DNA from: a virus
Lineage: Duplodnaviria > Caudoviricetes
Strand: one strand, 5' to 3'
Length of the DNA: 64,000 nt
IMG/VR virus record: IMGVR_UViG_3300032323_001428
Location: 1-64,000 of that record
The notes beneath the pieces are model-generated. The model ran no database searches. It worked only from the letters and a program-made list of their open reading frames with translations, and had not been told where the DNA came from. Made by a program: the position numbers and the translations under genes. This document shows, one piece after another, positions 1,284-61,233 of this stretch (positions within the stretch are counted from its first letter, which is position 1; each line of letters begins with the position of its first letter).

Positions 1284-2042
1284 TTATTTACGCAAATTGC
1301 CGTAATTCTTCTCCATTACGTATCTTGTATATTGAAATGTAACTGTTGTTTTTACAATTTGACTTCCTTCATAAGTCAAAGGCATCGCAGTAATATTTGT
1401 TGGAAATGCTTCAAGCATTCTATAAGTTAAATGTGGTGGGAATCTTATATCATTTGGTTTTGAACTATCAAAATTTCTTTCAAATTTTGTAAGTGATATA
1501 ATTCTCCTATAATCATCTGGATATCTAAATCGAAAGAAATCTCTTTTGTCTTTTCCTAGATTATTACCTTGTCCTTTTTCATTTGCTGGTAATTCACCAG
1601 TACCACCATATAATGGATTGATAAAGTTCATCCATTCTTCAAAAAGACGAATTAAATTATATTCACTATCCACATAAAAAGTCATTGTGAATTCTGGGAA
1701 AATTCTTCTCGTTGGAAATCTTTCAATCGTTCCCTGACGACTTCCCATTTCTTCTGTTACGTCAAACTGTACTCCAGGAATAACTGCTTCCGCACAATAA
1801 AAATCATAAACATAATTTTTTGTTTGATTTCCAGTAATAACATTAGATTTGCGTAACCAACTCATCAATCCACTTCCACCAGCATCAACATTGGTTAAAT
1901 GCAATGATACTTTAAACTGACTAGTAAGAGATAAATTACCAAAAATATCTCTTGCCGAAGGCATCCCATTTGATGGACTACCTTCAGTCATCTTAAGGTA
2001 TAATGGTCCTATTTCTGGAGACCCACTTTTTGGAGTAGCCAT
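1284..2042 (-). CDS. tail-tube-fold baseplate protein (gp19/gp54-like)
   Basis: FTMTFYVD...FEEWMNFI, YPDDY, EAFPTNI...VTFQY motifs; baseplate context. Confidence 0.7.
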   Translation of the reverse strand: MATPKSGSPEIGPLYLKMTEGSPSNGMPSARDIFGNLSLTSQFKVSLHLTNVDAGGSGLMSWLRKSNVITGNQTKNYVYDFYCAEAVIPGVQFDVTEEMGSRQGTIERFPTRRIFPEFTMTFYVDSEYNLIRLFEEWMNFINPLYGGTGELPANEKGQGNNLGKDKRDFFRFRYPDDYRRIISLTKFERNFDSSKPNDIRFPPHLTYRMLEAFPTNITAMPLTYEGSQIVKTTVTFQYTRYVMEKNYGNLRK

Positions 2043-2043
2043 C

Positions 2044-2051
2044 TATAAATA
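2044..2051 (+). promoter_or_regulatory. T4-type late promoter TATAAATA
   Basis: Exact consensus 21 nt upstream of the gp4 ATG. Confidence 0.75.
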
Positions 2052-2072
2052 TCTTAAGTGTTTATACTATGT

Positions 2073-2540
2073 ATGCCTCGTAACGAAGATAGTAAATATA
2101 GACAGGGAAAATACAGACCACATAATCCACAAAAGTATGGTGGTGACCCATCAAATATTGTCTATAGGTCTTCTTATGAATTGAAGTTTATGCAATATTG
2201 TGATTTGACTGAAAGTGTGAATTCTTGGAAAAGTGAAGAGTTTTTTATTCCTTATCGTTCACCAATAGATAATAAGTATCATAGATACTTTCCTGACTTT
2301 TTTGTGAAGTATAAAGACAAGGACGGAAATACTAGAACTCTTGTTGTTGAAATCAAACCAGCAAAAGATTTAAAAATGCCCGAAACAAATCCCAAAAGAA
2401 GAACAAAGTCTTGGGCTTATTCAGTAAAAATGTGGGTAGTCAATCAAGCAAAGTGGGAAGCTTGCCGTGAATATTGTAAAGATAGAGGTTGGGAATTCAA
2501 GGTGTTCACCGAACGTGAGTTGGGGATAAACGTAAAATGA
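2073..2540 (+). CDS. gp4: head completion nuclease
   Basis: YRSSYE, W.SEE..IPY, RYFPDF, VEIKP, NQAKW motifs. Confidence 0.9.
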   Translation: MPRNEDSKYRQGKYRPHNPQKYGGDPSNIVYRSSYELKFMQYCDLTESVNSWKSEEFFIPYRSPIDNKYHRYFPDFFVKYKDKDGNTRTLVVEIKPAKDLKMPETNPKRRTKSWAYSVKMWVVNQAKWEACREYCKDRGWEFKVFTERELGINVK

Positions 2541-3034
2541 TTGCAGACGACATTAGAAAACAAGCAGGCAACAAATATCGTAGTAGTGATTGGTGGACCA
2601 ATTCACTAATGAATGAATTGAGAAATCAACAAAATAAAGATATTAACGAAGCAGATACTGGATTTATAAAACCAGGAGATTTGGTTTTCTTTTTATATTC
2701 CGCAAAGTATCCACAAAAATATGAATATTGGGACAAACACCCTTTATCTTATGTTTTAGACATTAGTTTTAATGAAGGTTGGTTTCTTGGAGCAAATCTT
2801 CATTACCTCAATCCACAATATCGTGGAGGTGTCGCACAATCCTTTCTAAATAAAGAAGGAGTTGTAAACGCACCCAAGAAAACTTTACACAAATACCTCT
2901 TCTCTGGGGTAATGACTGAATTCTTTAAAGTGCCTGAAAAAGAATGGAGAGAAGTATCGTTGCTTCCAACAGAGAAGTTTGTTGATAAAAGAGGTCAACC
3001 AGTATTTAAAACCAAAGTTTGGGACGCACCATAG
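2537..3034 (+). CDS. gp2: DNA end protector-like protein
   Basis: FLYSAK..YWDKHPL, GANLHYL, LHKYL, LPTEKF motifs; follows gp4. Confidence 0.7.
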   Translation: MIADDIRKQAGNKYRSSDWWTNSLMNELRNQQNKDINEADTGFIKPGDLVFFLYSAKYPQKYEYWDKHPLSYVLDISFNEGWFLGANLHYLNPQYRGGVAQSFLNKEGVVNAPKKTLHKYLFSGVMTEFFKVPEKEWREVSLLPTEKFVDKRGQPVFKTKVWDAP

Positions 3035-4540
3035 ATGGCTTATGAAGTATTAAAAGACGAATATTATACTTCTGGTTTAGGTCCTCTTGGTCCTAGTCCT
3101 CTTGGTATTAGATATGACCCAGTAACTGGAGATTATGAATTAAAAGCAAAAAGTGCGTTAGGATATGATATAGGAATTGGACTAGCAATATTCTATAAAA
3201 ATGGTAGTTACACAAGTGATGCAATACGAGACCCAAAATTGTTTGTAGATGGAGATCCAAACAAACCAACAGCATTGGCGCAACAACTCTCAGTGGATAT
3301 AAGGAAGAAGGTATACGCAGCATATCAAGTAAAAGGAGGTGTTGCTGGTAAAAATGTAGTTAATTCTTCCGCAACACCTGCAAATCAAAATAGCAAAGCA
3401 GGAGTAAACAATAGTTTTCCAGGAACAAATCCAGGAATAGCAACAGCAATACCAGGAACAGGTGCATTAGCAGCACCACCAGGACAAGGGAACTTTTTTG
3501 ATCCTGGATTTGCTGCTCTTGCTAATCTCAATTTTGATAGCAATAATGAAAAAGATATTTTCAAAAGTGGTCTTTTATTGTACCCAATTGATATTTTAAA
3601 AGAACAACAAGACACATTACAAATTACAATGTATCGTTATAAAGCACCATTAGAAGGAGTATTTAGTGGAAATGTAAATCCAGCAGATATTTTCAAACAA
3701 GGATTGCAAAGAAATAGTGCATTAAAAGAATCAATTGCAACTACTATTTTACCAATTCCTTCTGGTATTCAAGACAATAATGCTATAAGTTGGGGTGATG
3801 ATACAATGAATAATATGACGGCAGCAGTTACTGCCGGAATGATTAAGAATGTAGGACAACAGGCAGGAATTCAAGCAGCACTTTCATTATTAAATTCAAC
3901 GACAGGGGGAAGTTTACCAACAGGAGCAGCGAACCAACTTACTGCTTTAGGATTTGCTGGTGCAGACTTAAACAACCCTATGGTAAAAACTGCAATAACT
4001 TCATTATTATTAAAAAATGCTGGTTTTGAAGTTCCAGCAGAAACTATCTTAGCAAGAGGATTTGGAATTGTTCCAAACTCAAACCTTGAATTATTATTCC
4101 AAGGTCCAACACTTCGTTCATTTAGTTTCAGTTGGCGTATGAGCCCAAGAAGTGCTAAAGAAGCAACAAATGTAAAAAGAATTATTCGTATGTTTAAACA
4201 AGGCAGTGCTCCAAGAAAATTAAACTCACAGTCTGGTGCTGGTGCTGCTTCTCTTTTTCTTGGAACTCCAAATATCTTTAAACTTTCGTATAAAACAGCA
4301 GGAAGTAAAGAAATATCTGGATTAAATAAATTTAAGATATGTGCTCTTGTTAATATGAATGTGATTTATGCACCTGACGGTCAATGGGCTGCTTATGCTG
4401 AAGGACAACCAGTGTCTTTGCAGATGTCCTTAAACTTCCAAGAAATTGAACCAGTTTATGAAAGTGATTATCAAAATAAAATATTTGGTAATCTTGGTGA
4501 TAATTATAGTCTAGTCAAAGACGACGATGTAGGATACTAA
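3035..4540 (+). CDS. gp48: baseplate tail-tube cap
   Basis: LPIP..IQDNN..W, NLELLFQGPTLRSFSF, PRSAKEA, L.FQEIEP motifs. Confidence 0.85.
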   Translation: MAYEVLKDEYYTSGLGPLGPSPLGIRYDPVTGDYELKAKSALGYDIGIGLAIFYKNGSYTSDAIRDPKLFVDGDPNKPTALAQQLSVDIRKKVYAAYQVKGGVAGKNVVNSSATPANQNSKAGVNNSFPGTNPGIATAIPGTGALAAPPGQGNFFDPGFAALANLNFDSNNEKDIFKSGLLLYPIDILKEQQDTLQITMYRYKAPLEGVFSGNVNPADIFKQGLQRNSALKESIATTILPIPSGIQDNNAISWGDDTMNNMTAAVTAGMIKNVGQQAGIQAALSLLNSTTGGSLPTGAANQLTALGFAGADLNNPMVKTAITSLLLKNAGFEVPAETILARGFGIVPNSNLELLFQGPTLRSFSFSWRMSPRSAKEATNVKRIIRMFKQGSAPRKLNSQSGAGAASLFLGTPNIFKLSYKTAGSKEISGLNKFKICALVNMNVIYAPDGQWAAYAEGQPVSLQMSLNFQEIEPVYESDYQNKIFGNLGDNYSLVKDDDVGY

Positions 4541-52052: not shown

Positions 52053-53900
52053 TTAACCTTCCATAATTTGATCGAACCAACCCTCACTCATATTGTTGAT
52101 AATCACATTTGCGTCATCAACTGTTGATGCAAAGTTGTTTTCGAGAAGATATGATGCTACAAACTCGTATGCGGCATATGCCTCTTTAATCTCTCTTGGG
52201 GTCATAGCAGCAGCTCTCTTACGTGCCTTATTTCCTCTACCTGTGGGTGGGAGATCAGCACCATACTTGCTGTATCCTGCCTTTAAATAACTATTGTGTG
52301 CTTCTTTTGCCTTATCTGCATAAGATTGCGAAGCATTGCCCATATCAACTTGTGTCTGTGCTCTTTCGGCATTACCTTTAGCACGATTTAGAATTTTTCT
52401 TTTGGCAGAAGTATCAGACTTTTCAGGACCAACATTATACCTTGCGCGAAGTTGATCACCTCTACTTTGTGGTTTAGGTGTTTCGTCTTCTTTCTTTTTA
52501 GAGAATAAACCTCTGATTGCACTACCAATACCTTCATCAAGATAAATCTCAGCCATTTCGTCCCAAGTATAATCACTGAGGTCATAACCTTCTTCTACAA
52601 GTTCATTTACCCAGAGTTCAACTTCTTCGTTGTAAGACTTATCCTTCACCATAGCAATTGCTTGTGCTTTCGTCATCCCAGAAGCAATCATTCTCGCAAC
52701 TCTTACATCCGCAAAGTCATTATCACCATCTTGGTCTTGGTCTACTTTTTTCTTTGCTTCGTAAATTGAAGCATAAGCACCTGCAATATCTCTAATTGTT
52801 TTTGCAGAAGGCCACTCGTAAGAACTTTTCACCATCTCTTTCTTTTGGGAATTTGTATTATTTATACTATTTGTTCCTGGTGTTGCTGGTTTAATTCCTT
52901 GAGAAGCACCTGCAATTTGAGAAGGTGTAGGTGTAGAAGTTGCTGGTTTTGCTGCTAATGCTTTAGCAGCCGCAGAACCTGCTGGTGCTCTATTTAAATT
53001 TGCTGGTGTATTTGCTCTTGCTAAATCCGCACTTACACTCTTCAAATCAGGAATTGCAGGAGTTGGTCCAGTTGTAGGAAGATTGGTCTTCTGTGCTGCT
53101 TGAAGTGCCTTTTCTGGTGATGCTCCACCTGCTCTTTCTTTTTGAGCTGCTCTCAATTCAGCAGATGTTGGAGTTCTTCTCTCAAATGAAGTGTTTCCTA
53201 ATTTACCAACTGCTGGTGTTGCAGGTTTTGGTTGTGCCGCAGCAGGAGTTGCTGCTCCTGATGATGCAGAAGTTCTTGCAGCATTTTGTGCGGCAACACT
53301 TGAATAACGGGACTTCTCCGCAGCACTAAATGCTCTTGCCTTAAAATTAGCACCAACTCCTGTGCCTTCTACTCCATCTTTCTTTGAAAGAACTGGACCT
53401 TTTGGTGGTGCTGGTTTTGGTGGTGTTCCTGGCACTGGTGTTCTTGTTGGTGGTGTTCCTGGTACTGGTTGTTCTAATGGTTTTTCTGGTGGTAGTTTTT
53501 TTTCTGGTGGTAGTTTTTTTTCTGGTGGTTTTTGTTCATCTCTCCCCAAGCCAGTTTCTTTGTTTAATCTAGTAGCAAGTCTTATCGCTTCGGCGCCTTT
53601 ATCTGGGTCATAAGAAGTTGCCCCAGGTTTTGCGATATATCCTTTATTTGTCTTCACCACTCCCAGTTGTGCTCTTTGGTTCGTTGCTCTAGTTGCTACC
53701 TCCCGATTAAATGCATCAAGTGCTTTTTGTCCACCAATACCACCAATTTCAGTTAAATACTCTTCATACAACTCTTCCCAGGTATACTCACTCAGGTCAT
53801 AACCTTCTTCTAGGAGTGAACTAACCCAACTTTCAACTTCTTCCCAAACATAAACACTCAAATACAACTCGTTCAAGGCGTCCAAATCTTTTCTATTCAT
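52053..53900 (-). CDS. low-complexity modular protein with repeated acidic EEGYDLS.YTW motif (putative internal head protein)
   Basis: Two copies of W(V).(.)L.EEGYDLS.YTW.E; Pro/Ala/Lys-rich spacers; DQDQDGDNDF. Confidence 0.7.
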   Translation of the reverse strand: MNRKDLDALNELYLSVYVWEEVESWVSSLLEEGYDLSEYTWEELYEEYLTEIGGIGGQKALDAFNREVATRATNQRAQLGVVKTNKGYIAKPGATSYDPDKGAEAIRLATRLNKETGLGRDEQKPPEKKLPPEKKLPPEKPLEQPVPGTPPTRTPVPGTPPKPAPPKGPVLSKKDGVEGTGVGANFKARAFSAAEKSRYSSVAAQNAARTSASSGAATPAAAQPKPATPAVGKLGNTSFERRTPTSAELRAAQKERAGGASPEKALQAAQKTNLPTTGPTPAIPDLKSVSADLARANTPANLNRAPAGSAAAKALAAKPATSTPTPSQIAGASQGIKPATPGTNSINNTNSQKKEMVKSSYEWPSAKTIRDIAGAYASIYEAKKKVDQDQDGDNDFADVRVARMIASGMTKAQAIAMVKDKSYNEEVELWVNELVEEGYDLSDYTWDEMAEIYLDEGIGSAIRGLFSKKKEDETPKPQSRGDQLRARYNVGPEKSDTSAKRKILNRAKGNAERAQTQVDMGNASQSYADKAKEAHNSYLKAGYSKYGADLPPTGRGNKARKRAAAMTPREIKEAYAAYEFVASYLLENNFASTVDDANVIINNMSEGWFDQIMEG

Positions 53901-53954
53901 CTTCTTAGGAGTAGTAAAAAGTACTTTTCTATACTTATTTATTCTTTTTACTTA

Positions 53955-55481
53955 TCAATCAACAAACTGTTTCCAGTATTCATATGGAGTCATTTCTTCT
54001 CCCATATTCTTTCTTGCTTTTTTACGTGCTCTTTGTGTTTGTTTTGTAGTTGAAGATGGATTATCACTAGTTCTTCCACCTTTTGCTCCTTGATAAGAAC
54101 GAAGTGTCGTCTCACCAGATGCATTTGGTTTTGCTAAGTGAGTTTTAATTTTTGTAGAAGTTGGGTTGTTCTGTTTCTCTTTCTCAAATGCATTATTAAC
54201 TTTTGCAGCATCATCATACATATGAGTTTCCTTAGCACCACTCTGCTTTGCAATTCCTTTTGCCGTATCTACTTTTTTCTTCCCAACATCACTACCTTTC
54301 ATTCCACCAGTATAATGAATTTTATTCATAGGAACATCAATACCGTGCTTCTTCAAGTGTCCTTGGAATTCACTTGGTTTATCAAACTTTGAACGAGCAG
54401 TAATTATATGAACGTTTTGTCCTCTTGCTTGTTTTCTCTTAACATCTTTAATTGTTTTTTTGTTTGGAGTAGAAGTTTTTGAGAAAGTTTTAGCACTTTG
54501 GAACTCACTAAAATCATAAGAATGTCCCTTATCTTTATCAAGTTTATGAGTATTAAACTCTTGGTTGCTTAAACTTTGAACTCTTTTCCCAGATGCGTCC
54601 TTTACGTGAACCTGAACATTTGGTTTGCCTTTCTTACCGTGACCAAACAAGGTCTCATCTACATCATATGCATGAATTGTTTTCTTTGGTCTAGTTCCTC
54701 TTGCTTTCTCTTCAATATACTCTTCAAGAATAACTGCTACAAATTCATCACTCATACACTCAAACATATTTTCAGCAGTCTCATAATCTTCTGCGAATTC
54801 ACTATCAACCAAAGTTTCAATTACATAATCATAAATGTTTTCCGTTTCTTCTTTTTGTGCCGCATAATAAGCACCAAGTGCTCTCTTAATTCTTTGCTTC
54901 TTACTATCACCTTTAAATGTTTTGCTCTTTGAATGAACGAAATCACTGATTGTCGCACCAGCATCAGCACCTACATCAATCTTTTCATCAAGTTCAAACT
55001 CTTCGTTTTCTATTCTTGCTCTTCTATCATTTTGATTGCTTACGTGACTATCTTGATATTTTGTAACTTTACCTGTCTTATCTCTAATAAATTTTGTTTT
55101 CGTCCATTTACTTTCCTTTTCTCCTCTTTGTTTTTTTTCTCCCCAGTTATCAATATGAAGTTCTGTTCTAAACTGATTTTGACCATCCTTATTTCCAATA
55201 TAAGGATTATTTGTTATTCCTGCTCTTTTATTTCTTGCTGTTTCCTTTTCACTTCTTGATAGACTATTATCAACCTTTGCTTCACTCACTTCTACTTCTT
55301 CTTTCTTTACTGACGCAACAAAACCAGGAAGTTGTGGTCCACCCTTTTTTGCTCTTTCTTTTCTTCTACGAGTAATTTCGGCATCTGCCTTATTCGCAAA
55401 TTCTTTCTGCCCTGCAATATCTGGATGCTCTGCCGCAACACCTTCACTATAAAATCTTTTAAACTTAAAAGTTCCAGACAT
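53955..55481 (-). CDS. modular basic/acidic protein containing a HAD-like domain
   Basis: YDVDETLF, ITARS, K, MYDD motifs between acidic helices. Confidence 0.7.
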   Translation of the reverse strand: MSGTFKFKRFYSEGVAAEHPDIAGQKEFANKADAEITRRRKERAKKGGPQLPGFVASVKKEEVEVSEAKVDNSLSRSEKETARNKRAGITNNPYIGNKDGQNQFRTELHIDNWGEKKQRGEKESKWTKTKFIRDKTGKVTKYQDSHVSNQNDRRARIENEEFELDEKIDVGADAGATISDFVHSKSKTFKGDSKKQRIKRALGAYYAAQKEETENIYDYVIETLVDSEFAEDYETAENMFECMSDEFVAVILEEYIEEKARGTRPKKTIHAYDVDETLFGHGKKGKPNVQVHVKDASGKRVQSLSNQEFNTHKLDKDKGHSYDFSEFQSAKTFSKTSTPNKKTIKDVKRKQARGQNVHIITARSKFDKPSEFQGHLKKHGIDVPMNKIHYTGGMKGSDVGKKKVDTAKGIAKQSGAKETHMYDDAAKVNNAFEKEKQNNPTSTKIKTHLAKPNASGETTLRSYQGAKGGRTSDNPSSTTKQTQRARKKARKNMGEEMTPYEYWKQFVD

Positions 55482-55511
55482 ATGAGTAAGCAATACCTTC
55501 TTTTTATTTAT

Positions 55512-55537
55512 AAAAAAAAGAGGGGTCGAAACCCCTC
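55512..55537 (-). terminator. intrinsic terminator followed by a late promoter
   Basis: GAGGGG-TTTCGA-CCCCTC + T tract, running into TATAAATA. Confidence 0.75.
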
Positions 55538-55952
55538 ACATCACATTTAATCCTGGTTTTAATACTTCATATTCTCCATTGTTAAAAATAACACCAGAAT
55601 AATAGTTTTTACCATTAAACTCACAGAACATATTATATTCTCTACTATCTTCAAATGGAGTTATATCTATTAAGTTTCCATAGGTATTTTTCCAGATACT
55701 ATGGTATATCGCACACCCATAACTTTCATCATCAATATCTGTGATTAAATAATAACCACTTATCTTTTTCCCCCCATAAGTATTTGTATAATGATTTACA
55801 TTATTGTGGCAGTTTGCATCAGCACATAAAGGTTTAACTACCACAGGAACTTTCAATAGAATATGAGAAAAACTACAATACTCCTGAAGTTTTATAACAC
55901 ACTCATCTTCTGGTAGTGATATTCTAAATTTTCTTTTCAATACTCCATCCAT
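55536..55952 (-). CDS. hypothetical protein (CH.NV...GY...HS.W...DITP family)
   Basis: Cys/His/Asp motif set; overlaps the end of the endonuclease gene. Confidence 0.55.
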   Translation of the reverse strand: MDGVLKRKFRISLPEDECVIKLQEYCSFSHILLKVPVVVKPLCADANCHNNVNHYTNTYGGKKISGYYLITDIDDESYGCAIYHSIWKNTYGNLIDITPFEDSREYNMFCEFNGKNYYSGVIFNNGEYEVLKPGLNVM

Positions 55953-56658
55953 TTGTTCTAGGTCCTTTTCTATTATACTTTATTGCGGCAATCATAGTAG
56001 CATATGAGATATTTTGAGATTTACAAAACTCTTTTAATCCACCAACAATAACATATTCTTTATTTTCTGGAGATGTGAGTTTCCAAATTTTTGCAGATGG
56101 TGGTTTAAAACCTGCAGCATATCTTTCCTTTGCCTTTTCACTTATTTTTCTTTTTCTTTCTTCACTACAAGGAATACCATAACTTGGATTATTCTCTCCC
56201 GCAACCTTTTGACTTATTTTCCTTTTTGTTTCTTCACTATGTTTTTTAGGTCCATATCCACCAACAGAAAGTTGCAAATTTCTTCTTTTTTCTATTTGGT
56301 CTTCCCACTTATCACCATATATTTCTTGGTATGTTTTTCCTCTATGATTTGGTGGTCTTGAGCTTTCACAAATATTTGTTAATATTCCACCCTCATCATA
56401 TCGTATTCTTCCATATTTTTGTATTAATGATTCTTCATAAAAATAAGCATCATTTTCATTTTCAAAATATTCAACTATTTTGACTTCTGGTTCATACCCC
56501 TCCTTTCTTATTTTTTGTATTTTATTAAATTTTCTTTCATTATCACTTTTTGCTCTTGTTTTTTCGGACAAATGAAAATAAACCCGATCATCTTTTCCCT
56601 TTCCAACATAAAAAGGCAGATTGACTCTTGGGTCTATTAATTCATAAACATAATACAT
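55924..56658 (-). CDS. free-standing GIY-YIG (LEM-3-like) homing endonuclease with NUMOD3
   Basis: YYVYELIDPR...PFYVGKG...R..H, E..LI..YG, LTN, HSEETKRKIS. Confidence 0.85.
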   Translation of the reverse strand: MYYVYELIDPRVNLPFYVGKGKDDRVYFHLSEKTRAKSDNERKFNKIQKIRKEGYEPEVKIVEYFENENDAYFYEESLIQKYGRIRYDEGGILTNICESSRPPNHRGKTYQEIYGDKWEDQIEKRRNLQLSVGGYGPKKHSEETKRKISQKVAGENNPSYGIPCSEERKRKISEKAKERYAAGFKPPSAKIWKLTSPENKEYVIVGGLKEFCKSQNISYATMIAAIKYNRKGPRTNGWSIEKKI

Positions 56659-56719
56659 AAACAAGAAACTGAACTCTAATACTATTTATATAATATTATA
56701 TTTCAGTTTCTTGTATTAG

Positions 56720-57904
56720 TCAAAGTTGAAATCCAGCAAATGTGTTTGCAGCAACATCTTGTTTAATTCCACCAACAATATAAGACTGCACCTGCGTTTG
56801 TTGTGGGCTGACTTGAAGTCCTTTGGAACTAATCCAATGCTCCGTCCAAGGAAGTGGATTATTCTTTGCAGCAATATCATAAAGTGGTTTAATACCAATA
56901 GACTTCATACGACGATTCGCAATCCACTCAACATAACTCCAAAGGAGTTTGTCGTTCAATCCAATCATTGAACCATCTTTAAACAAATATTCTGCCCACC
57001 TCTTTTCCTCATTTACACAATTCTCAAAAGCACCTTTTACCCATTCCTCTTCTTCTTTAGCAATTTGTTGCATTTCTGCATCATCTCCTTCACGCCATTT
57101 ATTGAGGATGTTTTGAGTAATGACAAGATGCTGATTTTCGTCTCTTGCGATGAGAGAGATAATTTTAGCGGATCCTTCCATAAGTTTGAGTTCACCAAAC
57201 GCAAACGAGCAAGCGAAAGAGACATAGAATCTGATACCTTCGAGAATATTGACATTTGCTATTGCACGATAGAGTTTTCTTTTGAGTTCATACCTTTCTT
57301 CTTTTGCAGTTCCAGCACCCTCTTGTGCGTGAACCCAAAGATTTGAGTTTCCATAATGTTGTGCGGAATTGATAAAGTCATCATAAGCACCAGTTACTGA
57401 TGATGCCCGTTCAAGAATTTTTTCATTACTCAAAATAGAATCAAAGACTTCTGTGGGATCAGAGTAAACATTCTTAATAATGTATGTATAGGAACGACTA
57501 TGAATCATCTCCATAAATTCCCAAACCTTCATACATGCTTCCAATTCTGGAAGAGAACAATAAGGTGTAAAAGCCATTCCAGGACCACGACCCTGAACTG
57601 AATCCAAAAGAATTTGATACTTCAAATTAGAAGTGAAGATATGCTTTTGTTCTGGACGAAGAGATTGATAATCTCCACGATCTTTTTGTAAAGAAATTTC
57701 TTCTGGTCTCCAGAAATATCCCAACTGTTGTTGAGTCAGTTTATCAAAGACAGGATACTTGTAAGTATCATATCTTTGAACTCCAAGAGGAGCACCAAAA
57801 AACATAGGTTGCTTTTTGGGATCTACCTCTTGAGTATTAAATACAGTCATTCCTTCAATCATTTTTTCTTTTTCTGCAGTAACTCTAAATTTTACAGGGT
57901 TCAT
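56720..57904 (-). CDS. nrdB: class Ia ribonucleotide reductase beta subunit
   Basis: FWRPEE, LDSVQGR, E.IHSRSY, LEGIRFY, IARDE..H, C-terminal FQL. Confidence 0.96.
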   Translation of the reverse strand: MNPVKFRVTAEKEKMIEGMTVFNTQEVDPKKQPMFFGAPLGVQRYDTYKYPVFDKLTQQQLGYFWRPEEISLQKDRGDYQSLRPEQKHIFTSNLKYQILLDSVQGRGPGMAFTPYCSLPELEACMKVWEFMEMIHSRSYTYIIKNVYSDPTEVFDSILSNEKILERASSVTGAYDDFINSAQHYGNSNLWVHAQEGAGTAKEERYELKRKLYRAIANVNILEGIRFYVSFACSFAFGELKLMEGSAKIISLIARDENQHLVITQNILNKWREGDDAEMQQIAKEEEEWVKGAFENCVNEEKRWAEYLFKDGSMIGLNDKLLWSYVEWIANRRMKSIGIKPLYDIAAKNNPLPWTEHWISSKGLQVSPQQTQVQSYIVGGIKQDVAANTFAGFQL

Positions 57905-57934: not shown

Positions 57935-60235
57935 TTAAATAGAGCAACTATCACAAGAACTTTCATCAGCATTAGAAAGTTCTTCAAGAAGAGATTGGAT
58001 ATCCTGTTTTGGTTCTTCCTTGACTTCATCAGTCTTATTATCATATGTATTTTGATAATAAGCCGTCTTATGCCCCAGTTTAAAACAAGTAAGCATATCT
58101 TGTGCCATTACGCTAACAGGAACTTCATTATTGGCATAATTCTCTGGATTATACGACCAGTTTCCAGAAATTGCTTGATCAAAGAACTTCTGCATAACTG
58201 CAACAATATTAATATACCCACGATTGCTAGGCATATCCCAAAGCAACGTATAGTTGTTTTTAAGATGTTGATACTGTGGAACAATCTGTTTGAGAGGTCC
58301 TTTTTTAGATTTCTTAATTGATAAGAATCCACGAGGAGGTTCAATTCCATTAGTTGCATTTGAAACTACAGAACTTGATTCTGATGGCATTTGTGCTGTA
58401 AGAGTAGAGTGTCTCAATCCAAACTCTTTAATTGACTGTCTTAGTGCTTCCCAATCGTGCTGAAGAGGAACAGAAGACACTTCATCTACATCTTTCTTGT
58501 AAGTATCAATAGGAAGAATACCTTGTGAATATTTAGTATGATTGAAATATTCACAAGCACCCTTTTCTTTAGCAACTTCATTTGATGCTTTAAGAAGGAA
58601 ATATTGGAATGATTCAGACAATTGATGAACTGCATCCCAAGATTCTTGAGTATCATAATTAAATCCAAGTTTAGCAAGATAATGTGCCAACCCAATGTAT
58701 CCAACACCCAAAGACCTACGTGCTTTAGTTCCAATCTCTGCAGCAACTACAGGATAGTTTTGATAATCAATCAATTCTTCCAAACCACGAACAGAAAGAT
58801 TACAAAGATCCTCAAACTCTTCATCTGATTTTACTTTACCAACATTAATAGCAGAAAGAATACAAAGTGCAATCTCACCATTAGGGTCATCAATATGTTG
58901 AAGTGGGATTGTGGGGAGTGTAATTTCCATACAAAGGTTACTCATCTCAACTTTATCCATAAAGGATGAATGAGAGTTGCAGTGGTCAATATTCATAATG
59001 TAAATACGACCAGTCTCTGCCCTTTCCTTCAGAAGGTCCAGAAAAAGTTCTTGTGCTCCAATCGTTTTTCTTGGAATAGACTCATTTCGTTCTGCATCCA
59101 CATATAACCCATCAAATGAATCAGTGCCAAAAGCATCATACAACCCAGGAACTGAGTGTGGAGAGAAGAGTGAAATATCTTCGTTCTTGATGAATCTTTC
59201 ATAGAACAGTTTGGAGATTTGGATTCCATAATCTAATTTGCGAACACGATTATCTTCGGTTCCTTTATTATTTTTAAGAACTAGAATATCTTCTATTTCT
59301 TGATGCCAGATAGGAAAGAAAACTGTAGCAGAACCACCTCTGATGCCGTTTTGTGTGCAGCATCGCACAGTTGATTCAAACTTCTTAAGGAAGGGGACCA
59401 CACCTGTGTGCTGTACCTCTCCGCCTCTGATTTTAGAGTTGATGCCACGGATGCGACCTGCGTTGATGCCGATGCCTGCTCTTTGAGCAACATACCTCCC
59501 AATAGCCATATCACTACTGAAGATGCTATCCAAGGTGTCGTCAACATCAACAAGAACACAACTTGCAAATTGACGAAGTGGTGTTCTAACTCCTGCCATG
59601 ATGGGAGTTGGGATGTTGATTTTGTGTTTGGAGATTGCGTCATAGTATCTCTTGATGTATGAAAGACGTGTTTCCTTTGAATATCTAGCAAAGATAGTAG
59701 CAGCAATCATCATATACATGAACTGTGGAGTTTCATATACTTGTCCGCTGCTGCGGTCCTGGACCAAATACTTATCAACTACTTGACGAAGACCAGCATA
59801 AGTAAACAGATAATCTCTACTATGCTTAATGTAATTACCAAGTTTGTCAAGTTCTTCTTCTGTATAATTAGTTAAGATTTCTGGATCGTACACTCCAACG
59901 TCAACACAATTCTTAATATGATCTACAAAAGCAGGATGATCTTGAACTCTTCCATACAAAGATTTTCTTACAGAAAACAGAAGTAATCTTGCAGCAACAA
60001 ACTGATAATTTGGATTATCCAAATCAATCAAATCACTAGCAGAACGAATTAAAATCTCCTGAATTTCTGCTGTTGTAATTCCATCATAAAATTGAATACC
60101 AGATTGCATCTCAACCTGTGATGCAGAAACACCAGACAGGTCCCTACATGCCTCCTCAACCATCAAGTGAAGTTTATTGAGATCAAGAGGTTCATTATCA
60201 CCACTTCTCTTAACTACCTTTGTACCGTTGCTCAT
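57935..60235 (-). CDS. nrdA: class Ia ribonucleotide reductase alpha subunit
   Basis: ATP cone, PTP.MAG, ASCVL, SNLC.EI, MPSESSS, YY, C-terminal CDSC. Confidence 0.97.
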   Translation of the reverse strand: MSNGTKVVKRSGDNEPLDLNKLHLMVEEACRDLSGVSASQVEMQSGIQFYDGITTAEIQEILIRSASDLIDLDNPNYQFVAARLLLFSVRKSLYGRVQDHPAFVDHIKNCVDVGVYDPEILTNYTEEELDKLGNYIKHSRDYLFTYAGLRQVVDKYLVQDRSSGQVYETPQFMYMMIAATIFARYSKETRLSYIKRYYDAISKHKINIPTPIMAGVRTPLRQFASCVLVDVDDTLDSIFSSDMAIGRYVAQRAGIGINAGRIRGINSKIRGGEVQHTGVVPFLKKFESTVRCCTQNGIRGGSATVFFPIWHQEIEDILVLKNNKGTEDNRVRKLDYGIQISKLFYERFIKNEDISLFSPHSVPGLYDAFGTDSFDGLYVDAERNESIPRKTIGAQELFLDLLKERAETGRIYIMNIDHCNSHSSFMDKVEMSNLCMEITLPTIPLQHIDDPNGEIALCILSAINVGKVKSDEEFEDLCNLSVRGLEELIDYQNYPVVAAEIGTKARRSLGVGYIGLAHYLAKLGFNYDTQESWDAVHQLSESFQYFLLKASNEVAKEKGACEYFNHTKYSQGILPIDTYKKDVDEVSSVPLQHDWEALRQSIKEFGLRHSTLTAQMPSESSSVVSNATNGIEPPRGFLSIKKSKKGPLKQIVPQYQHLKNNYTLLWDMPSNRGYINIVAVMQKFFDQAISGNWSYNPENYANNEVPVSVMAQDMLTCFKLGHKTAYYQNTYDNKTDEVKEEPKQDIQSLLEELSNADESSCDSCSI

Positions 60236-61233
60236 ACTCGTTTCCATCCAATAAGTTTTGCTTTTGCTTCTAGTCCCATATAAGTATTTTCCTTGATGAT
60301 TTTTGAGGCATCAATTCCTGATAAAATTATATCATTGATATCTTTTTCTTTCAAGTCATTTGGCCAAATGACAATTGGAAATTTCATTTGTATTGCCTTT
60401 TCCATTCTATCAACAATTTGTTTATTCCGTTTTTCATTATCATAAACCATTACGAAATCTGTTCCAAAGTTAGAAACAAAAAACATTTTGTCAATGTCTG
60501 CACCAACCATAGCAATTGAATTATCTAAAAACATACTATCAAATGGTCCTTCAACAACATAAACAGTTTTGTCGTAATCTGGTTTATCCAAATTGTAAAT
60601 TTTTGGATGTGTATCATTAAGAATAATCGTAATGTATTTTACCTTTGAATTTTTATTCAAACTACGACCTTGAAATCCAAATATTTCTCCTTTATTAACC
60701 AAAGGAATAATGATTCGTGGTTCGTCCTTTTCTACTTTATCAAAGGTGTGTTTTTGAGTATTCGTCCATTCTTTAAACTTCTCACAGAAATACAATTCAC
60801 GCAGATAGTTGTTGGGTATCTTTCTATCTTCTAGGTATTTTCTTGCGGAGTGTTCTTTATTTAGTTCTGCGATAGTAGGAAGGTCAAATGCTTTTTTTGA
60901 AAAGTTTGGTTTCTCAAAATTAAACTCTGGGTTCTTTGTTTGAGATCCTCTTCCTGTTGTTCCTTCTTTATATCTTTCCATTACATACTGGTCGTAAAGA
61001 ACAGTATCCATATCTTTTAGAAAGTTTGTAAATGTTCTAGAAGTCCCACAATTATGACATTTGAAATTGTGATCATTCTTTAATTGGTAAATATACCCTC
61101 TTGTTTTACTTTTTGTCCTTTGACTATCACCGCAGTAAGGACACCGAAAGTTGTAAAGACCTTCTTTTTTCTTGGCAAACTTATCCAGTCGGGAAGAAAC
61201 CAACCCGATGTATTTGGAATCAACAAAACTCAT
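60232..61233 (-). CDS. gp61: DNA primase
   Basis: NFRCPYCGDS, CHNC, RIIIP, QGRSL, EGPFDS, YDNE.RN, KDIND. Confidence 0.95.
   Translation of the reverse strand: MSFVDSKYIGLVSSRLDKFAKKKEGLYNFRCPYCGDSQRTKSKTRGYIYQLKNDHNFKCHNCGTSRTFTNFLKDMDTVLYDQYVMERYKEGTTGRGSQTKNPEFNFEKPNFSKKAFDLPTIAELNKEHSARKYLEDRKIPNNYLRELYFCEKFKEWTNTQKHTFDKVEKDEPRIIIPLVNKGEIFGFQGRSLNKNSKVKYITIILNDTHPKIYNLDKPDYDKTVYVVEGPFDSMFLDNSIAMVGADIDKMFFVSNFGTDFVMVYDNEKRNKQIVDRMEKAIQMKFPIVIWPNDLKEKDINDIILSGIDASKIIKENTYMGLEAKAKLIGWKRV

Follow-up and report, generated by a model that had tools for sequence, protein, structure and literature searches.

Recoding of conserved glutamates in the phage NrdB tail follows a Cys-His-Asp gene carried with a homing endonuclease

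The gene for the small subunit (nrdB) of a class Ia ribonucleotide reductase (RNR) in a stretch of viral DNA encodes glutamine at sites in the C-terminal tail where most of its relatives carry glutamate. This stretch, positions 1 to 64,000 of IMG/VR record IMGVR_UViG_3300032323_001428 and called the window here over its full 64,000 nucleotides (nt), is a piece of a freshwater T4-like cyanophage genome. Recoding at tail positions 350, 352 and 354 (E. coli numbering) is inherited with a small downstream gene, orfX, and not with the homing endonuclease gene next to nrdB as such. The coupling between orfX and glutamine tails is very probably functional rather than mere linkage. The best explanation available, which is offered tentatively, is that the orfX product acts on the tail of the NrdB protein, most likely by deamidating glutamine to glutamate.

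The features at issue are the following.

56720..57904, minus strand: nrdB, class Ia RNR small subunit, 394 amino acids (PF00268 at 184 bits, over its cut-off; E 1e-118 to E. coli R2)
56780..56809, minus strand: recoded tail motif SPQQTQVQSY (S366-Y375), from translation and alignment to E. coli R2
55924..56658, minus strand: free-standing GIY-YIG/NUMOD3 homing endonuclease, 244 amino acids from its ATG (the list of open reading frames begins it at a TTG, 56664), from Pfam and PHROGs
55536..55952, minus strand: orfX, 138 amino acids, with a 29-nt overlap at the endonuclease stop; it represents a new family in which Cys48, His84 and Asp96 are invariant

The nearest cultured relatives are T4-like Synechococcus phages, whose NrdB proteins are 77-84% identical to that of the window. 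Sequencing runs that contain the window stretch are labeled freshwater, lake or river metagenome. The record is a 91-kilobase (kb) viral fragment, estimated to be 48% complete, and has a single nrdB.

The recoded tail and the gene that it follows

In translation, the NrdB tail is ...GLQVSPQQTQVQSYIVGGIKQDVAANTFAGFQL, with 19 residues after the tyrosine; seen in context it reads ...QVSPQQTQVQSY, then 19 residues to the C-terminus. The motif is encoded as AGC CCA CAA CAA ACG CAG GTG CAG TCT TAT (56780..56809, minus strand). When aligned to E. coli R2 chains with HMMER (E 1e-118), the protein runs gap-free to the last residue, and a QV.PQ motif is common to both. The alignment places Gln369 (CAA, 56798..56800), Gln371 (CAG, 56792..56794), Gln373 (CAG, 56786..56788) and Tyr375 opposite E. 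coli E350, E352, S354 and Y356. The residue encoded at the conserved tail Glu350 of class Ia NrdB is glutamine (Gln369, CAA), and 352 is glutamine as well. The original prediction, made from the letters of the window, had described the all-glutamine motif at 350, 352 and 354, its equivalence to E350, and the match of a tyrosine 19 residues from the C-terminus to Y356; the translation and alignment bear out each of these. It had also held that the metal ligands, the radical tyrosine and WRPEE are intact. In the same alignment the letters of the iron-ligand, radical-tyrosine and FWRPEE segments are those of E. coli R2, in which we take the ligand and radical residues to be D84, E115, H118, Y122, E204, E238 and H241. 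PF00268 is found on all NrdB relatives in the nearest protein clusters.

Tail state was compared with gene content at 201 unique nrdB 3' ends, of which 14 were too short and 187 were assessed. This pooled sample is conditioned, since the searches behind it started from the motif, orfX or the nuclease. Junctions are counted below by the residues at 350/352.

Tail; no cassette; nuclease only; orfX without nuclease; nuclease and orfX; total
Glu-Glu; 61; 10; 0; 2; 73
At least one of 350/352 replaced; 0; 0; 5; 109; 114

An orfX domain is present at all 114 recoded tails, recognized in 113 by hidden Markov model (HMM) and in one by eye (L352, where the domain is divergent and fused), and is absent from 71 of the 73 Glu-Glu tails. 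Glutamine tails number zero among 72 orfX-negative junctions. The nearest NrdB loci were gathered without such conditioning. Ten of these 84 have glutamine tails, and nuclease plus orfX follow in all nine that have enough downstream DNA; neither gene accompanies any of the 74 Glu tails. Among loci found via orfX alone, Gln352 is present in 74 of 76 visible tails.

A search for W-x6-QVAPQQ in any phage returned at least 120 stretches, which added 81 loci to the set. Of these, 74 among the matches listed are NrdB tails of diverse lineages, and seven lie outside nrdB and match by chance. The orfX domain lies straight after nrdB in 70 of these 74, mostly in a single reading frame with GIY-YIG. At L298, L319 and L350 the downstream DNA is too short to show orfX; L318, a twin of L319, has orfX 717 nt after the stop. 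The fused N-terminal domain of L352 has, by eye, the look of a diverged orfX.

The nuclease alone does not have this association. An intact nuclease without orfX is present at ten unique junctions, all of which keep Glu at 350 and 352. Six such loci of cyanophage type were inspected. Their nucleases are 244-248 amino acids long, are 70-75% identical to that of the window and start 61-64 nt after the nrdB stop (61 in the window), and their tails are of the Glu type. Two more distant orfX-less nucleases, 46-50% identical to that of the window, also accompany Glu at 350 and 352. In the nuclease tree, orfX-less rows with Glu tails form four separate groups nested among orfX-bearing rows with Gln tails. 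Intact orfX directly follows a Gln-tail nrdB in the absence of the nuclease at four loci (L144, L149, L306 and L309). These ten junctions and four nested groups speak against the driver proposed in the original prediction, escape of the target site from the GIY-YIG nuclease. The nuclease gene does adjoin nrdB, as stated there, but recoding tracks orfX and not the nuclease as such. The Cys-His-Asp reading frame at 55536..55952, flagged there as a speculative candidate enzyme, is the best predictor of recoding in the pooled table and the trees.

An NrdB-body tree of 162 rows, with the tail left out, contains nine supported independent pairs that differ in orfX, and the tail is concordant in 8.9 of them (p 0.0039). 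For pairs differing in the nuclease, the tail is concordant in 4.2 of 8 (p 0.125). In the split arrangement, the nuclease gene stands between the tail and orfX. Plain linkage should therefore favor the nuclease, the opposite of the ranking found.

The same switch occurs in other phage lineages. NrdB proteins that are 50-53% identical to that of the window have Gln tails followed by orfX fused to GIY-YIG, and relatives in those lineages that are cassette-free or have the nuclease only keep Glu. For example, L260 has a tail of ...QQVQISSY followed by nuclease and orfX, compared with ...QEVELSSY in its cassette-free relatives L263 and L266. In L268, a tail of ...QQTQISSY precedes an orfX::GIY-YIG fusion that starts on the nrdB stop, and L270, which has the nuclease only, reads ...QETEISSY. 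The Glu-to-Gln switch is found on four native tail backgrounds, the ...TEITSY, S...TEVESY, ...TEISSY and ...VELSSY types.

Gln352 is encoded in 24 of the 120 closest NrdB protein clusters, and Gln350 too in 18 of these 24, whose tails read SPQQTQVQSY (14), APQQTQVQSY (4) or APQETQVQSY (6). The back-translated motif matches 98 IMG/VR stretches. Three DNA runs from other studies and an RNA library also have contigs that cover the recoded codons, and none of the differences listed in those contigs falls at 56786..56800. The glutamine codons, for which verification from reads had been called for, stand in more than 100 independent contigs and in runs from other studies. Contigs of the RNA library leave 10 of 30 bins without cover, orfX included, and have no bearing on expression.

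The ratio of nonsynonymous to synonymous polymorphism (pN/pS) in the nrdB body is 0.155 for Gln350, 0.157 for Glu350/Gln352 and 0.166 for Glu lineages; in codons 346-362 the values are, in the same order, 0.148, 0.195 and 0.109. Gln codons at 352 and 354 alternate between CAA and CAG among lineages. The recoded nrdB is under ordinary purifying selection, like its Glu-type relatives, and the notion of a crippled subunit, another suggestion made at the outset, is rejected by the similar ratios of Gln350 and Glu lineages.

orfX and its possible action on the tail

The importance of position 350 is documented in E. coli. There, beta E350 contacts alpha K154 and S647 (PMC11482829, PMC11067019), substitution of E350 disrupts radical transfer (PMC11482829), and E350 and Y356 are called essential (PMC8463856). 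The large subunit that would receive the tail is encoded next to nrdB.

57935..60247, minus strand: nrdA, class Ia RNR large subunit, 770 amino acids, an open reading frame that aligns to E. coli NrdA chains (E 1e-282)

In the window, the equivalents of K154 and S647 are Lys and Ser. Both residues are retained by 28 of 28 recoded lineages, and by 45/45 and 44/45 Glu lineages, respectively. No NrdA column separates recoded from Glu-type lineages, either among 4 versus 48 sequences or among 28 versus 45. A compensated mechanism acting through NrdA, which had been considered in the original prediction, is without support, since the partners of E350 have not changed in any of the 28 recoded lineages. 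Judged by these sequences, the recoded reductase would still expect a carboxylate at 350.

Deamidation is suggested by three things taken together: a reductase that expects a carboxylate, a gene specifying an amide, and an obligatorily linked Cys-His-Asp protein. In such a mechanism, orfX would be a thiol enzyme that works on the NrdB tail protein and hydrolyzes the side-chain amides of Gln350 and Gln352 (and Gln354). Mature NrdB would again have its conserved glutamates, and E350 would pair with the NrdA residue equivalent to Lys154. Such a reductase would be dependent on orfX, and the cassette would be held in the genome even after nuclease decay. This dependence would account for orfX outliving the nuclease and for the absence of any Gln tail seen without it. 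That orfX acts on the tail at the protein level is somewhat favored. Deamidation of tail Gln to Glu as the chemistry is a more tentative proposal, and we advance with slightly greater caution the complete scheme, in which the cassette recodes conserved glutamates, E350 among them, to Gln in DNA and its own thiol enzyme restores Glu on the protein.

A profile search yielded 304 representative orfX relatives, whose core corresponds to residues 30-117. An alignment of 54 diverse members has invariant columns only at Cys48, His84 and Asp96; His49, Asn51 and the ITP after Asp96 are nearly invariant. An AlphaFold2 model based on the family alignment (predicted local distance difference test, pLDDT, 92.2) has Cys48 opening helix 48-59, His84 in strand 78-88 and Asp96 in strand 94-96. 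Isoelectric points (pI) are 5.5 for orfX and 9.4 for the nuclease. PHROGs contains only an unnamed family matching orfX (6.5e-06). The nearest named clusters in the ESM Atlas are YunG-like (0.86), which serves as a lead only. In BFVD the best match is an unnamed GIY-YIG fusion (E 5e-7), and the others are uncharacterized phage proteins.

Many orfX relatives are fusions with the orfX domain, GIY-YIG and NUMOD3 in that order. In P0247 (538 amino acids) and P0243 (191 amino acids), the orfX domain is C-terminal to DUF723/treble-clef zinc-finger repeats, and the stretch before it in P0247 looks like a small restriction-endonuclease-like core. These architectures imply that orfX pairs with nuclease-type proteins of more than one kind. 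No tblastn match to orfX or to the fused orfX domain exists in 50,697 GenBank phage records, and hence no cultured cassette-bearing phage was found there. A DNA pattern scan of bacterial genomes gave 72 stretches, of which four are true orfX relatives, all from Bacteroidota and none beside nrdB. These genes (L438, L441, L457 and L494) encode 168-446 amino acids and sit beside recombinase-, primase- or regulator-like genes on their contigs. Three of the four sequences have another residue in place of the His adjacent to the invariant Cys.

Contact between orfX and the tail is weakly supported by a binding prediction. The modeled pairing of orfX with NrdB 340-394 scored 0.51 (runs 0.50, 0.56 and 0.51), compared with 0.19 for the best control. 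At least 43% of contacts are shared between runs, and the partner pLDDT is at least 78. In calibration, 58 of 80 solved complexes attained the pass mark, as did 2 of 110 mismatched pairs; scores of 0.60 or below include only 7 of the 80 solved complexes and both mismatches that passed.

Several observations weigh against a deamidase. Twenty-five of the 114 recoded tails keep Glu350 and are changed at 352 only. At some loci that bear orfX, position 352 is Thr or Ala (Val in L352) and position 354 is Ser or Thr, residues that deamidation could not repair. Two loci, L188 and L197, have an intact nuclease and orfX yet keep Glu tails. Truly independent recoding events number about four, as judged by tail backgrounds, rather than over 100, because samples were conditioned and tail and cassette move as a unit. 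A tail-specific deamidase would also have had to arise before it had any Gln substrate, which is hard to explain.

Searches also confirm no enzyme family or fold for orfX. No Pfam family matches orfX (protein and both alignments), and no papain- or transglutaminase-like one does so at E up to 10; a profile search of PDB sequences found no match at E up to 10, and Foldseek with both models found nothing in the PDB at E <= 0.001. A wide VIA search with a weaker first model gave a best Z of 3.0 (PeiW Z 3.0, TglA Z 2.9). With the pLDDT 92 model the best Z is 3.8, to unrelated small alpha/beta proteins, and TglA is at Z 3.2. We take the chains at Z 3.0-3.2, by their titles, to have a transglutaminase fold; no match in either VIA search is convincing.

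The company that orfX keeps adds to these difficulties. It is N-terminally fused to the GIY-YIG nuclease in most non-cyanophage lineages and joined elsewhere to zinc-finger modules, and its Bacteroidota relatives have mobile-looking surroundings away from nrdB. orfX of the L260 lineage continues in frame, at its end, into a duplicated remnant of the former tail, and the junction just 3' of the recoded codons hints at DNA cleavage near them. orfX looks like a nuclease accessory, which would be natural for a partner that works on DNA.

Such a role is the basis of the main alternative, which is somewhat less likely than deamidation. Here the escape idea of the original prediction is shifted from the GIY-YIG domain to orfX, which would be an extra recognition or cleavage module of the nuclease, and C-for-G recoding would make the carrier uncuttable. 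The site would span the GAR-NNN-GAR codons in the invariant motif of the tail, with Gln as the mildest substitute for Glu. Immunity at the DNA level draws support from the fusions to GIY-YIG/NUMOD3 and zinc-finger modules, the GIY-YIG fusion that is the best BFVD structural match, and the position of the L260-lineage junction. The residues at 352/354 vary (Gln, Thr, Ala, Val and Ser), as if any residue other than Glu serves, and the combination of nuclease, orfX and Glu tail is rare (2 of 115 orfX-bearing junctions). In addition, free-standing endonucleases beside nrd genes are known in T4 (PMC2790892).

Other evidence fits immunity poorly. orfX has an invariant Cys-His-Asp in an acidic 110-residue core, and we know of no nuclease or DNA-binding module that looks like this. 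It stays intact beside Gln tails at the four nuclease-less loci. Scars of past immunity are expected to outlive the cassette sometimes, but no Gln tail was seen among the 72 orfX-negative junctions. Finally, the nucleases that are 70-75% identical to that of the window and have nearly the same spacing from nrdB tolerate Glu tails.

It is improbable, but conceivable, that the Gln tail works unmodified and that orfX uses or needs it in some other way at the protein level. For example, orfX could dock on the tail, cross-link tail Gln to Lys, or damage Glu tails so that Gln is a resistance allele. The same linkage of orfX in the pooled table and trees is compatible with these schemes, as are the weak binding prediction and the purifying selection on codons 346-362 (pN/pS 0.148). 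Thr, Ala, Ser and Val at 352/354 fit 'not Glu' better than 'repairable'. However, E350 substitution disrupts radical transfer in E. coli (PMC11482829), and the Lys partner is kept; an unmodified Gln350 is therefore expected to cost activity. Nor is a selective logic evident for attacking Glu tails in a shared cytoplasm.

Pure hitch-hiking, in which founder cassettes lay beside Gln tails by chance and co-conversion during homing spreads both, is very unlikely. The tail does travel with the cassette, because the last 96 nt of nrdB are only 75% identical to Glu-type L004 and the body is 97.2% identical (window locus L259), and the cassette boundary is clean. Yet tail state follows orfX although the nuclease gene lies between them, and the switch is found on four native tail backgrounds and also in NrdB lineages that are about 50% identical. 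Sequencing or assembly error, or a decaying and useless nrdB, can be dismissed, because the motif recurs in IMG/VR and in the nearest protein clusters, contigs of other studies hold identical codons, reading frames are intact and pN/pS is like that of Glu-type genes.

The cassette and its neighboring signals

The endonuclease and orfX form a compact insertion at the 3' end of nrdB, accompanied by two RNA-level signals.

55547..56719, minus strand: cassette (endonuclease plus orfX) of about 1.17 kb between the nrdB stop and a terminator, from comparison with cassette-free relatives
55512..55535, minus strand: intrinsic terminator, a GC hairpin plus T run that directly follows nrdB in cassette-free relatives
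56661..56714, minus strand: strong RNA hairpin of 13 base pairs plus 9 base pairs between the nrdB stop and the endonuclease start, from folding

In cassette-free L004, L008 and L009 the terminator hairpin is directly 3' of the nrdB stop. Homology between the window and cassette-free relatives resumes at about 55553, so that the insert boundary is clean. The endonuclease matches NUMOD3 at 41.8 bits (cut-off 20.4) and PF22945, LEM-3-like GIY-YIG, at 38.8 bits (cut-off 27); PF01541 scores 15.9 bits, under its cut-off. It also matches the phrog_314 homing endonuclease family (1e-17). A GIY-YIG gene had been predicted about 120 nt 3' of nrdB. The neighboring gene is indeed of this type, but its ATG (56658) is 61 nt after the nrdB stop.

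The hairpin at 56661..56714 folds at -24.5 kcal/mol (z -6.15), and none of 200 shuffled sequences folds as well. Its 3' arm stops 3 nt short of the endonuclease ATG at 56658, and its loop contains a TATAAATA box, which we take to be the T4-type late promoter consensus. Homing endonuclease genes of T4 are subject to early-off, late-on translational control. By analogy, the hairpin with its TATAAATA box looks like a candidate for the same arrangement.

In other phage lineages, orfX terminates in a second copy of the NrdB C-terminal tail that starts at about Ser354/Tyr356 and extends to the final residue (L260:3028-3438, L262:1072-1482; P0253, P0257 and P0229). There the cassette seems to have inserted within the sequence encoding the tail, bringing a replacement tail. 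An independent lake metagenome (run X7) has a contig in which the terminator is joined to nrdB (window position 55524 to 56844), with 1319 nt left out; the join in nrdB is about 35 nt upstream of the recoded motif. This junction probably represents a cassette-free Glu-type variant in the same water. Synechococcus phage DSL-LC02 (L003), a cultured relative, has a different 'putative endonuclease' annotated between nrdA and nrdB at 3349..4020, and its tail is of the Glu type. The close relative L007 (IMG/VR) has, inside its nrdA (locus 1811..3030), about 1.2 kb of DNA that the window lacks; possible candidates are an intron, an intein and a further endonuclease gene.

On the 3' side of the cassette, two long open reading frames occupy window positions 52053..55493 on the minus strand. 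One, of 512 amino acids, has a weak polynucleotide-kinase-like PHROG match, and the other, of 615 amino acids, is Pro/Ala-rich. Comparison with close relatives shows a mosaic in both, made up of blocks that are 74-98% identical.

Relation to known systems

As a new gene family, orfX accompanies homing endonucleases and shows genetic coupling to a non-synonymous change in the host gene. No prior description of a Gln350 RNR tail or of a pairing between a homing endonuclease and a deamidase was found in the literature, and titles and the beginnings of abstracts on cyanophage nrdB homing endonucleases do not show the recoding. For RNR enzymology, the loci supply hundreds of selected natural Gln350/Gln352 variants. 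If these work unmodified, they constrain models of how the tail gates radical transfer; otherwise, they point to post-translational correction. For mobile elements, they point to either a new form of nuclease retargeting or a new way for a selfish element to become indispensable.

The NrdB tail of the window resembles that of E. coli in its gap-free alignment, its QV.PQ motif, its Tyr356 equivalent and 19 trailing residues, and the conservation of E350's partners in NrdA. It is unlike the E. coli tail in having Gln at the positions of E350 and E352.

Papain-fold thiol enzymes, some of which act on protein glutamine, have a catalytic Cys that opens a helix, and their His and Asp lie on strands. 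Like transglutaminases, protein-glutaminase and bacterial effector deamidases, orfX has Cys, His and Asp in this order, with Cys at a helix start and His and Asp on following strands of the predicted model, and the substitution linked to it is from Glu to Gln. Unlike them, its core is only about 90 residues, and no HMM or fold search confirms its membership.

Free-standing endonucleases of T4-like phages are found near nrd genes, as in the case of mobE between nrdA and nrdB, and include the Seg-type GIY-YIG enzymes. The element in the window is similar in being an intergenic GIY-YIG/NUMOD3 gene next to nrdB with a sporadic distribution among close relatives, in the co-inheritance of the flanking nrdB tail, and in the hairpin before its start codon. 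In contrast to these systems, the element has an obligatorily linked partner, the gene or domain orfX, and the associated polymorphism is non-synonymous at conserved motif residues instead of lying at silent or tolerated sites.

Inteins and introns restore the product of their host gene after expression. If deamidation is correct, the cassette would resemble the inteins and the group I introns with homing endonucleases that occur in nrd genes, since a selfish element at an essential site would again be combined with a device that restores the product. Protein-level 'repair' would play the part that splicing plays for introns and inteins, and the host enzyme would be addicted to the selfish element. 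Unlike these elements, nothing is spliced out, and the proposed repair is a side-chain change carried out by a separate or fused small enzyme.

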